The notes beneath the pieces are model-generated. The model was not told where the DNA came from. It did no database searches and saw only the letters and a list, made by a program, of their open reading frames with translations. DNA of 64,000 nucleotides, from positions 21,018 through 85,017 of the forward strand of contig JAYKHY010000039.1 in NCBI GenBank assembly GCA_035285025.1, read 5' to 3'. Source of the DNA: Vampirovibrionales bacterium (GTDB lineage Bacteria; Cyanobacteriota; Vampirovibrionia; Vampirovibrionales; JAJTHC01). Shown here in pieces: positions 12,246 through 12,900 of the stretch; within the stretch, counting starts at the first letter, position 1; each line of letters starts with the position of its first letter. A program made the position numbers and the translations under genes.

Positions 12246-12386
12246 TTACTTTGCGCAGCACGGCATGGCTTGGCTACAGCAGGGTTTTGCCGGGCAGCAC
12301 CCTTCTGCCGCCTGGGCAGATAACAGGCCCGAAAAGCCCACAATCGAGACGATGGCCACCAATGCGGCAGAGAACAGATTTTTCAT
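12246..12386 (-). CDS. Secreted 46-aa cysteine-rich peptide (absent from the ORF track)
   Basis: ATG at 12386 with AGGAG 8 nt upstream. The translation is MKNLFSAALVAIVSIVGFSGLLSAQAAEGCCPAKPCCSQAMPCCAK. It has a classical Sec signal peptide with an AQA cleavage site. The roughly 20-aa mature part carries three CC doublets and Met/Pro spacers. Confidence 0.5.
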   Translation of the reverse strand: MKNLFSAALVAIVSIVGFSGLLSAQAAEGCCPAKPCCSQAMPCCAK

Positions 12387-12477
12387 ATCAAATAACTCCT
12401 GAATAAATAATATAACGCACTAAATCGGTAAAAAATAACGGGAGCATTAAATTTAGCGCCCGTTTCACTCGTGCGGC

Positions 12478-12900
12478 CTAGTTCAGGAGTACATTCAAAT
12501 CTAAGTAACGTTTAGACTGATTCTGCACAAAACGCTGTGCCAGCATCGAGGTGTTTGCCAGATTTAAATAAGGCAGAACACCTGGTTGCACAAAAACATT
12601 ATCCGGGAAAAACGCTACTGTTACTGGATTGATCACGTTTGACGCGTCAAGCGTGGCAACCTGACGCGCACGCAGGCTACAATTGCACGTTTGCTTTACA
12701 TCTGGTGCAGCAATGGTACCCGCAGACGCATCACGCAAGCCGTTGTGCATACCTTTGCAGGTTGAGTGCGTGTGCTTAGCCGTAGTACCGCAGCAACTTG
12801 CAGCAGCGGTTTGCATTGCCCCAAACGGCAACACCAAACAGGCCACTACCAGTAAAAAAGCGTGTAAACGTTTCAGTAACATCATCTTGTCTAGCATCAT
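12478..12900 (-). CDS. Secreted cysteine/histidine-containing hypothetical protein
   Basis: 140 aa. The signal peptide (MLLKRLHAFLLVVACLVLPFGAMQTAAA) is followed by SCCGTTAKHTHSTCKGMHNG, and further Cys occur in CNCS. It lies immediately upstream of, and on the same strand as, the 46-aa Cys peptide. Confidence 0.45.
   Translation of the reverse strand: MMLDKMMLLKRLHAFLLVVACLVLPFGAMQTAAASCCGTTAKHTHSTCKGMHNGLRDASAGTIAAPDVKQTCNCSLRARQVATLDASNVINPVTVAFFPDNVFVQPGVLPYLNLANTSMLAQRFVQNQSKRYLDLNVLLN

Follow-up and report, generated by a model that had tools for sequence, protein, structure and literature searches.

The 64,000-nucleotide stretch analysed here (the window), from the metagenome-assembled genome (MAG) of a Vampirovibrionales bacterium (GenBank assembly GCA_035285025.1, contig JAYKHY010000039.1), contains two small open reading frames (ORFs) arranged in tandem on the minus strand (12246-12900): a partner ORF of 140 aa, counted from its first ATG (12478..12900), which is predicted to encode an exported Cys/His-rich protein, and a 46-aa peptide gene (12246..12386), whose ATG follows the partner after 91 nt. 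An earlier reading of the letters alone, referred to below as the sequence-only reading, had recognised this tandem pair, and translation of 12246-12900 bears out the positions and strand of both ORFs. Its description of the 46-aa ORF as unannotated has to be corrected: NCBI lists it as VKJ06_05215 and the partner as VKJ06_05220, both as 'hypothetical protein' in the same Vampirovibrionales MAG, with the partner starting at the ATG at 12885, which gives 135 aa.

The peptide gene occupies the intergenic gap downstream of the partner (all positions on the minus strand). AGGAG at 12400-12396, previously noted as a strong ribosome-binding site (RBS), stands 9 nt ahead of its ATG, which is an optimal spacing. 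The ORF opens with a predicted signal peptide, MKNLFSAALVAIVSIVGFSGLLSAQA (12309-12386), followed by a predicted mature peptide of 20 aa, AEGCCPAKPCCSQAMPCCAK (12249-12308); here and below, signal peptides were judged by eye from a K/R n-region, a hydrophobic core and an AxA-type cleavage site. Within the mature peptide, the motif CCx3PCCx4PCC (12255-12299) holds three CC doublets, as had been claimed, each with a Pro ahead of it; the framework is CC-x4-CC-x5-CC, and the stop codon follows 2 residues past the last CC. At the DNA level, the CCxxxPCCxxxxPCC pattern has a single match in the window and none in 100 shuffles. Two other readings were rejected: a lipoprotein (there is no lipobox, AEG|C having Glu at -2) and a leader peptide acting by attenuation at its Cys codons (nothing lies 3' on that strand, where a terminator follows the ORF). 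The peptide has no Pfam, NCBIfam or PDB sequence match, and in a word-indexed search of 5.8 billion clusters both window proteins match only themselves.

The partner carries a signal-peptide-like segment, MMLLKRLHAFLLVVACLVLPFGAMQTAAA, in which inspection shows AFLLVVACLVLPF as the hydrophobic core in addition to a K/R n-region and a site that reads TAAA|S; the putative signal peptide covers ~12799-12885 (minus strand), and the mature N-terminus SCCGTTAKHTHSTCKGMH would begin at 12798, the predicted residues after TAAA being SCCGTTAKHTHSTCKGMHNG. The SCCGTT of this N-terminus is followed by a second Cys motif, TCNCS, so that the overall Cys/His pattern reads SCC-x10-C-x2-MH with the residues HTH, plus TCNCS; a CC pair close to His and Met at the mature N-terminus, as proposed in the sequence-only reading, is present. 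For the partner, no match was obtained in Pfam (E up to 10, DUF2946 included), NCBIfam or PDB sequences. An exhaustive HMMER search with the 140-aa protein against 1.84 billion representatives returned the protein itself and one 1232-aa Ig-like repeat protein, which was rejected as a homologue: its E value of 8e-5 is summed over 5 weak stretches and is spurious.

The RNA of the pair adds a putative regulatory layer that the sequence-only reading missed. The Shine-Dalgarno (SD) arm of the peptide gene, UUCAGGAGU (12395..12403, minus strand), contains the AGGAG and is complementary to an anti-SD segment, ACUCCUGAA (12482..12490, minus strand), that falls within the partner's final four sense codons, as seen in both the inverted-repeat and the folding results, and ends one nucleotide before its stop codon (12480-12478). 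The repeat finder reports the two segments as a 9-nt inverted repeat with 100% complementarity, the stem is present in both the minimum-free-energy and the centroid fold predicted for the window RNA, and among 20,000 dinucleotide-shuffled versions of the 155 nt upstream, 0.13% contain a perfect complement this long over AGGAG. Between the genes, a hairpin at 12429..12464 (minus strand; arms 12456-12464 and 12437-12445, then UAUUUUUU) with a U-run has a predicted energy of -11.8 kcal/mol (z -2.6) and is a candidate weak terminator or attenuator-like element. A much stronger structure follows the peptide gene: the intrinsic-terminator-like long hairpin and U-rich tract at 12154..12222 (minus strand), convergent with flgC, reaches -31.6 kcal/mol (z -4.8), which none of 200 shuffles attained. 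At the other end, a candidate extended -10 element, TGCTATAAT (12953..12961, minus strand), was read from the sequence ~55 nt ahead of the first ATG of the partner; a consensus scan gave a different promoter candidate, TTGACC-18-GATAAT at 13051-13022. An Rfam scan of the window locus yielded no match. GC content and third-position GC (GC3) of both genes are similar to those of neighbouring genes and, taken together with the spacing of the AGGAG, the signal-peptide features and the terminator, indicate from sequence that this is a real gene pair.

Related peptides and partners in metagenomes

Relatives of the peptide were sought by scanning metagenome contigs at the DNA level with the back-translated CCxxxPCCxxxxPCC pattern, a homologue search suggested by the sequence-only reading. 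The scan returned at least 120 loci, mostly low-complexity Cys/Pro repeats, with at least 86 in-frame motif matches; four among the matches listed, ORFs of 38-41 aa, have the build of the window peptide. In each of the four, a Sec-type signal peptide is followed, 0-1 residues after an AxA-type site, by the motif, and the stop codon comes 1-2 residues past the last CC: MSRTLLSTLVLLFAFGTAAHAAA-CCDGGPCCEDAMPCC-DE (locus L012), MRTFLIGCVFALGLGGAAYAAS-CCDGGPCCEEPMPCC-D (L032), MLRSIFSTLVLLLAFGATVQAAQP-CCDDRPCCEDGNPCC-DE (L035) and MKRLMIGLALALGLGGTAYAAA-CCDGGPCCIELMPCC-DD (L060). The Cys and Pro positions of these relatives were set by the search motif; no such constraint applied to the presence of a signal peptide, to where the motif sits, to the stop that follows at once or to the Met that precedes the last PCC in the window peptide and three of the four relatives (alignment A1).

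From these four loci, a tri-CC micropeptide family was defined (signal peptide, 0-3 residues, CCx3PCCx4PCC, stop within 2 residues, 38-46 aa), and the window ORF has all of these features. A hidden Markov model (HMM) of the four relatives finds the window 46-aa ORF as its sole significant match among 1,969 six-frame segments (E 5.9e-7), while as a negative control none of 75 in-frame matches to the same motif in viral contigs has the family build. The ratio of nonsynonymous to synonymous substitution rates (dN/dS) of related peptides, 0.19 and 0.12, shows purifying selection. Three of the four related micropeptides (L012, L032 and L060) are not in a 15-billion-protein collection, though their contigs are public. 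Small ORFs of such size are routinely missed by gene callers, so that protein-level searches under-report the family, and the window peptide seemed an orphan in such searches for this reason. A tblastn search of 72,556 plasmids with one related partner and one related peptide gave no match, and a Pfam/NCBIfam scan of eight relatives assigned no family to the peptides and only chance-level, sub-threshold matches to three partners.

At every related locus, the peptide gene lies 18-45 nt 3' of a gene on the same strand for a protein of 98-142 aa. Each of these partners has a cleavable-looking signal peptide with a CC motif no more than 7 residues from the predicted cleavage site, as does the window partner, and in the related partners a CxC/CxxC-Q motif follows, as in SQSCCPMLAVDAPCHADALAACGTACSVCQ and ESVPCSCCDEQPAIGGGIACPGCQ. 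Because this layout is common to the window and all related loci, the tandem pair is a recurring two-gene module and no local coincidence. Two cross-matches were observed, neither of them significant: a profile of the four related partners scores the window 46-aa peptide (E 0.016) above the window 140-aa partner, and among the window matches of the peptide profile the partner ORF comes second (E 0.24). A start made of a signal peptide and then CC is common to partner and peptide, and to judge from their sequences one may be derived from the other.

All four proteobacterial partners carry a C-terminal PPPR, with the last Cys motif ~38-45 residues ahead of the PPP; their ends read AEPPPR, IPPPRGMISEA and LLPPPRASDATDL, each up to the stop codon. 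Such an end recalls CutF of Rhodobacter capsulatus, whose C-terminus is P109EPEGPPPRL118 and whose Cys motif is C69-C73 (PMC8456105). CutF is a Sec-exported nascent-chain copper sensor: when Cu binds its motif exposed in the periplasm, stalling at the proline motif lasts longer, and this melts a stem-loop that shields the SD of the downstream gene (PMC9973294; bioRxiv 10.1101/2025.02.05.636593). The published rule set for CutF-like proteins comprises a length below 150 aa, a signal peptide, a PP motif among the final 15 residues and a same-strand gene lying downstream (PMC9973294, PMC8456105), and all four proteobacterial partners show these properties. For the window partner, a weak alignment (A2) places QPGVLP opposite PPPR, ~36 residues from the last Cys motif and with a 30-residue extension beyond it; this placement hints that the window partner could be a derived form. 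A frameshift that would hide a PPP C-terminus in the window partner was considered and rejected, as no alternative frame yields a PP end.

The RNA of the related modules resembles that of the window in its logic. In three loci (L012, L035 and L217), a conserved CUCCGU 6-8 nt past the partner stop pairs with the ACGGAG of the peptide gene across a diverged loop, and the stop codon of the partner and the start codon of the peptide pair as well. The SD of L060 pairs with the codons for RPAI immediately ahead of the PPP (z -2.3). In four of the five module variants, the anti-SD thus lies within the expected ribosome footprint at the stall or stop site, which is the logic of CutF.

The modules occur in three types of context. 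In L012, the order is a MerR-family gene, partner and peptide, convergent with a gene for a P1B ATPase with an HMA domain whose motifs, CPCALVISTP and ADTGATVLVTANALRLL, are of the ZntA/CadA type. The MerR-family gene (1333-1851, plus strand) has an in-frame stop at 1546-1548, inside a conserved region between GFSID and VR, so that it could be a pseudogene, contain a sequencing error or be recoded; the C-terminal tail of its product has GCCGTT, a string also found in the SCCGTT of the window partner. In L035 and L217, an arsR gene is divergent from a partner-peptide-arsR-arsC(LMWP)-MIP series, partner and peptide being the first two genes of an arsR-arsC-aqpS operon. The flanking ArsR proteins (L035, 853-1218 on the minus strand and 1915-2244 on the plus strand; L217, 743-1072 and 1768-2133) end in NCCAGAASC and ECCAEGTC (CC-x5-C), the kind of vicinal-cysteine site with which some ArsR proteins sense As(III), so that the same CC chemistry is present in the regulator, the partner and the peptide of one ars-type locus. 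In the third type (L032, L060 and L127), glnE is divergent from the partner-peptide pair, which is followed by a strong terminator and then by DUF2852 and ate genes. A DUF2852 membrane protein is always encoded 3' of this module (L060, 5449-5934, plus strand; L032, 2055-2582, minus strand; L127, 8669-9115, plus strand), and that of L060 has a His-rich stretch, CGHRRHHDHGHGHAWGRH, which suggests, from its composition, metal binding and, possibly, a link in function between this protein and the module. Among the matches listed, two of the three locus types are resistance loci for thiophilic metals or metalloids.

Proposed function and rival explanations

The locus may be explained by a translationally coupled operon that, from the candidate promoter to the strong terminator, would encode two Sec-exported Cys-rich products. 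The micropeptide of ~20 residues would reach the periplasm and, once its signal peptide is cleaved, bind Cu(I), Cd/Zn/Pb, As(III) or Hg there through its thiolates, serving as a very small, exported, metallothionein-like buffer. Its SD would be sequestered by long-range pairing with the partner's last codons, so that the peptide would be made only with a ribosome at the partner's 3' end. The proteobacterial partners, with a signal peptide, a periplasm-exposed Cys motif, a C-terminal PPPR and an anti-SD at the stall site, would behave as CutF-type sensors do; the window version would have kept the exported Cys/His-rich partner and the masking of the SD and have no proline stall motif, relying on plain translational coupling or on an arrest sequence of a kind not yet recognised. 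For the window locus itself, namely a coupled operon with two exported Cys-rich products, a periplasmic soft-metal(loid) thiolate ligand and a need for a ribosome at the end of the partner, we rate this explanation at an even chance of being correct. The wider proposal is more tentative and stays somewhat short of that: a cross-phylum family of Sec-exported tri-PCC micropeptides (17-20 residues when mature), which would serve as periplasmic buffers or chaperones for toxic metals and metalloids, would be switched on post-transcriptionally by a CutF-type nascent-chain sensor and, in the Vampirovibrionales copy, would have exchanged the proline stall for masking of the RBS by the last codons. A common ancestry of the window and the proteobacterial modules is inferred.

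The metal reading gains indirect support because relatives sit in MerR/P1B ATPase and ars loci. Of the two functions weighed in the sequence-only reading, soft-metal binding and a disulfide-rich signal, the former is favoured by the relatives in ars and Zn-Cd loci; taken as a whole, that interpretation is partly supported.

Several observations weigh against this explanation. The C-terminus of the window partner, QNQSKRYLDLNVLLN, contains no PP motif among the final 15 residues, a comparison of the window partner with the four related partners gives an hhalign probability of 0.7% and no match to the partner HMM, and a single-sequence AlphaFold2 model of the partner has a pLDDT (predicted local distance difference test) of 41, with only the N-terminal helix confident. 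The mature window peptide is slightly basic and its relatives are strongly acidic; since the motif used to find the relatives came from the window peptide, Cys and Pro identities are built in and the likeness could be convergent. The evidence base amounts to 5 distinct modules in 3 context types among the matches listed, of which L032 has no convincing SD-masking stem (z -0.5), and L032, L060 and L127 lie beside glnE/DUF2852 with no recognised metal genes. Around the window pair, too, no metal transporter or regulator and no peptide-maturation gene was found in the annotated stretch, which spans ~10 kb towards flgBC and 21 kb in the opposite direction, in agreement with the earlier statement that metal-efflux, radical-SAM and maturation genes are not adjacent. 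Conservation of the pattern at the same position in related genomes was not seen: the nearest FlgC proteins are 72% identical and encoded on contigs of only 1.2-1.5 kb, where a different, unrelated gene abuts flgC and the pair was not found downstream. Finally, the six Cys could equally form disulfides in the oxidising periplasm.

A different function would be that of a disulfide-rich secreted toxin or signal, in which three disulfides would tie the peptide into a compact knot, as happens in heat-stable enterotoxin (STa) and conotoxins, for use by predatory Vampirovibrionales against prey or competitors, with the partner as a co-secreted helper or immunity factor. Vampirovibrio is predatory, and a 20-aa mature product with six Cys and Pro-induced turns behind a signal peptide would suit such a use, as would the lack of metal genes near the window pair, the non-acidic window peptide among acidic relatives and the appearance of a lineage-restricted orphan for which protein searches return self-matches only. 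Such a role is nevertheless unlikely: no enterotoxin or other toxin family is matched in Pfam/NCBIfam, the CC-CC-CC framework differs from the CC-CC-C-C of STa, a dedicated export, processing or immunity gene is missing, and the architectural relatives lie within ars and Zn/Cd/Pb resistance loci behind CutF-like sensors, which fits metal handling better.

The cysteines might also be converted enzymatically, as in a bufferin-like ribosomally synthesised and post-translationally modified peptide (RiPP) whose modifying enzymes are encoded elsewhere in the genome. A short Cys-rich core directly after a signal peptide would be compatible with this, and bufferins are reported to be exported Cys-containing RiPPs tied to copper stress (PMC11626156). 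The annotated flanks of the window pair and of every related locus contain no MNIO/DUF692, DUF2063, YcaO or peptide-type radical-SAM gene, though, the sole conserved neighbour is the small non-enzymatic partner, and Pfam/NCBIfam give no match to a bufferin precursor family, which makes a RiPP improbable. That the small ORF is not translated at all, its frame, AGGAG and inverted repeat being parts of the 3' untranslated region or terminator of the 140-aa gene and its likeness to metagenomic ORFs a coincidence, is very hard to believe. An open frame of 46 codons is not rare by chance, and no ortholog is seen in the nearest relatives (on short contigs); yet an optimal SD and a textbook signal peptide occur together with three P-CC units and a stop codon 2 residues past the last CC, this architecture is repeated in four independent metagenomic ORFs with dN/dS of 0.12-0.19, and the NCBI pipeline also calls the 46-aa ORF a gene.

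If the exported thiolate buffer under the control of its partner is real, bacteria would possess an inexpensive thiol buffer in the periplasm for Cu, Cd, Zn, As or Hg, produced only on contact of a nascent exported sensor with the metal, and the first natural exported metallothionein-like peptide in bacteria would be at hand. The CutF mechanism would then extend beyond copper to arsenic and Zn/Cd/Pb loci and beyond Proteobacteria into a non-photosynthetic sister lineage of Cyanobacteria, with a new class of effector and the first As/Cd/Zn-linked examples of its paradigm. The peptide is small enough for chemical synthesis, and a natural hexa-cysteine chelator of 17-20 residues could serve biosensing or bioremediation.

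Genomic surroundings

The gene pair is convergent with flgB-flgC (11032-11947, plus strand) and lies downstream of genes at 13023-18300 for a Wza-like polysaccharide export protein, a 563-aa membrane protein without Pfam match and a Wzc-like protein. A gene for a Dps-type ferritin is found 2.2 kb from the pair on the flgBC side; farther neighbours are housekeeping genes (lpxC, a fabD-like gene, PALP, clpB, OTCase and a RelA/SpoT-domain gene), and the only radical-SAM gene, 10 kb from the pair, is of the lysine-aminomutase type. In more distant Vampirovibrionia, the order is flgBC-x-fliE-fliF. The flgB-flgC genes of the window are not followed by fliE-fliF, unlike those on the distant Vampirovibrionia contigs L005 and L006, and the flagellar cluster of this MAG is interrupted by the Cys-rich pair and the polysaccharide export cluster. 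A synteny search with the Wza-like neighbour in 185k species genomes gave one distant Pseudoalteromonas match only; the lineage of the window MAG is poorly sampled.

Some further features of the window were observed in passing. An ORF of 161 aa beside the Dps-like gene (9027-9512, minus strand) has a hydrophobic N-terminal segment followed by Asn/Gly/Trp-rich repeats (GGWNNDGWNNGRWDNDWNNGWHNGH to YYYNNGGWYN) and no Pfam match, and is possibly a secreted low-complexity protein. Two plus-strand ORFs at 20579-21043 and 21149-21700, the second of which covers only the C-terminal half of a PALP (cysteine-synthase-type) domain, may go back to the splitting of a gene, a frameshift or faulty assembly; at 1.6 kb beyond the PALP ORF lies a gene for a hexapeptide acyltransferase.

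Comparison with known systems

The tri-CC peptide family, its pairing with CutF-like sensors, the links to As and Zn/Cd/Pb and the PPP-less Vampirovibrionales version appear undescribed in the databases and literature searched; the literature, queried for the peptide strings, exported or periplasmic metallothioneins and small Cys-rich proteins linked to CutF-like genes, yielded no description of such a peptide. The regulatory principle and metal buffering by Cys thiolates are both already known.

The chemistry proposed here is that of the bacterial metallothioneins SmtA/BmtA and MymT, tiny Cys-rich thiolate buffers. Those known from bacteria reside in the cytoplasm, lack a signal peptide, are ~50-60 aa long and have a fold or Pfam family of their own; the peptides described here, in contrast, are predicted to be exported, have ~17-20 aa when mature and no Pfam match, and the window peptide, which has no NCBIfam match either, is accordingly not classed with them. 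Adjacent Cys pairs serve as soft-metalloid ligands in ArsD and in AfArsR-type repressors, as proposed for the peptide, and the ars-type modules L035 and L217 adjoin ArsR. ArsD has three vicinal Cys pairs. These proteins are cytoplasmic and folded, however, without sequence relationship to the peptide, and the window pair lies outside an ars locus.

In STa and the conotoxins, too, a Sec-exported precursor yields a mature peptide of ~18-20 aa with six Cys, CC doublets among them. The framework of STa is CC-x2-CC-x3-C-x2-C, whereas that of the window peptide is CC-x4-CC-x5-CC, and the latter has no pro-region, no Pfam match and relatives in metal(loid) loci. Bufferins need an adjacent MNIO (DUF692) gene and partner genes. 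None of these maturation genes is among the annotated neighbours of the window pair or the related loci, and the pair is therefore not assigned to the bufferins, with which the peptide has in common a Sec signal peptide and a Cys-containing core; bufferins are also reported to be linked to copper stress (PMC11626156). A precedent for periplasmic metal sites made of vicinal Cys is CopG/CutG, an exported protein of a CutF-type operon, in which a CxCC motif holds a cysteine-bridged Cu4 cluster in the periplasm (PMC8456105); CopG is much larger, folded (PDB 6WIS) and has a Tat signal, and the 46-aa peptide matches nothing in Pfam, NCBIfam or PDB.

The closest counterpart is CutF of the cutFOG operon, together with the CutF-like and DUF2946-like proteins (CruR, CopL, SilD, CusD): as here, a small exported protein (<150 aa) with a Cys/His motif is encoded upstream on the same strand. 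The proteobacterial partners share with CutF the PPPR C-terminus and the spacing of ~40 residues from Cys to PPP. The window partner, whose N-terminus is signal-peptide-like, shares its size (135-140 aa), a Cys/His motif, the 91-nt gap and predicted masking of the SD, and differs in having no PP motif, no DUF2946 match and no similarity to the partner profile. Published CutF-like proteins number 5,334. Their rule-based definition asks for a short distance to the downstream gene, <1000 nt and mostly <100 nt (PMC9973294/PMC8456105), and the neighbour classes listed for them are efflux components, TonB-like proteins, PCuAC, HupE/UreJ and NosZ/NosR, with no Cys-rich micropeptide (PMC9973294). Where CutF is followed by a metal-homeostasis gene, the gene here encodes a tri-CC peptide of 38-46 aa and not an oxidase, an efflux protein, a TonB-dependent receptor or PCuAC. 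The anti-SD of CutF lies in an intergenic stem-loop and that of the window inside the ORF. The window partner is thus not filed as a member of the CutF family; by analogy, in layout and RNA logic, it would work like a CutF module.

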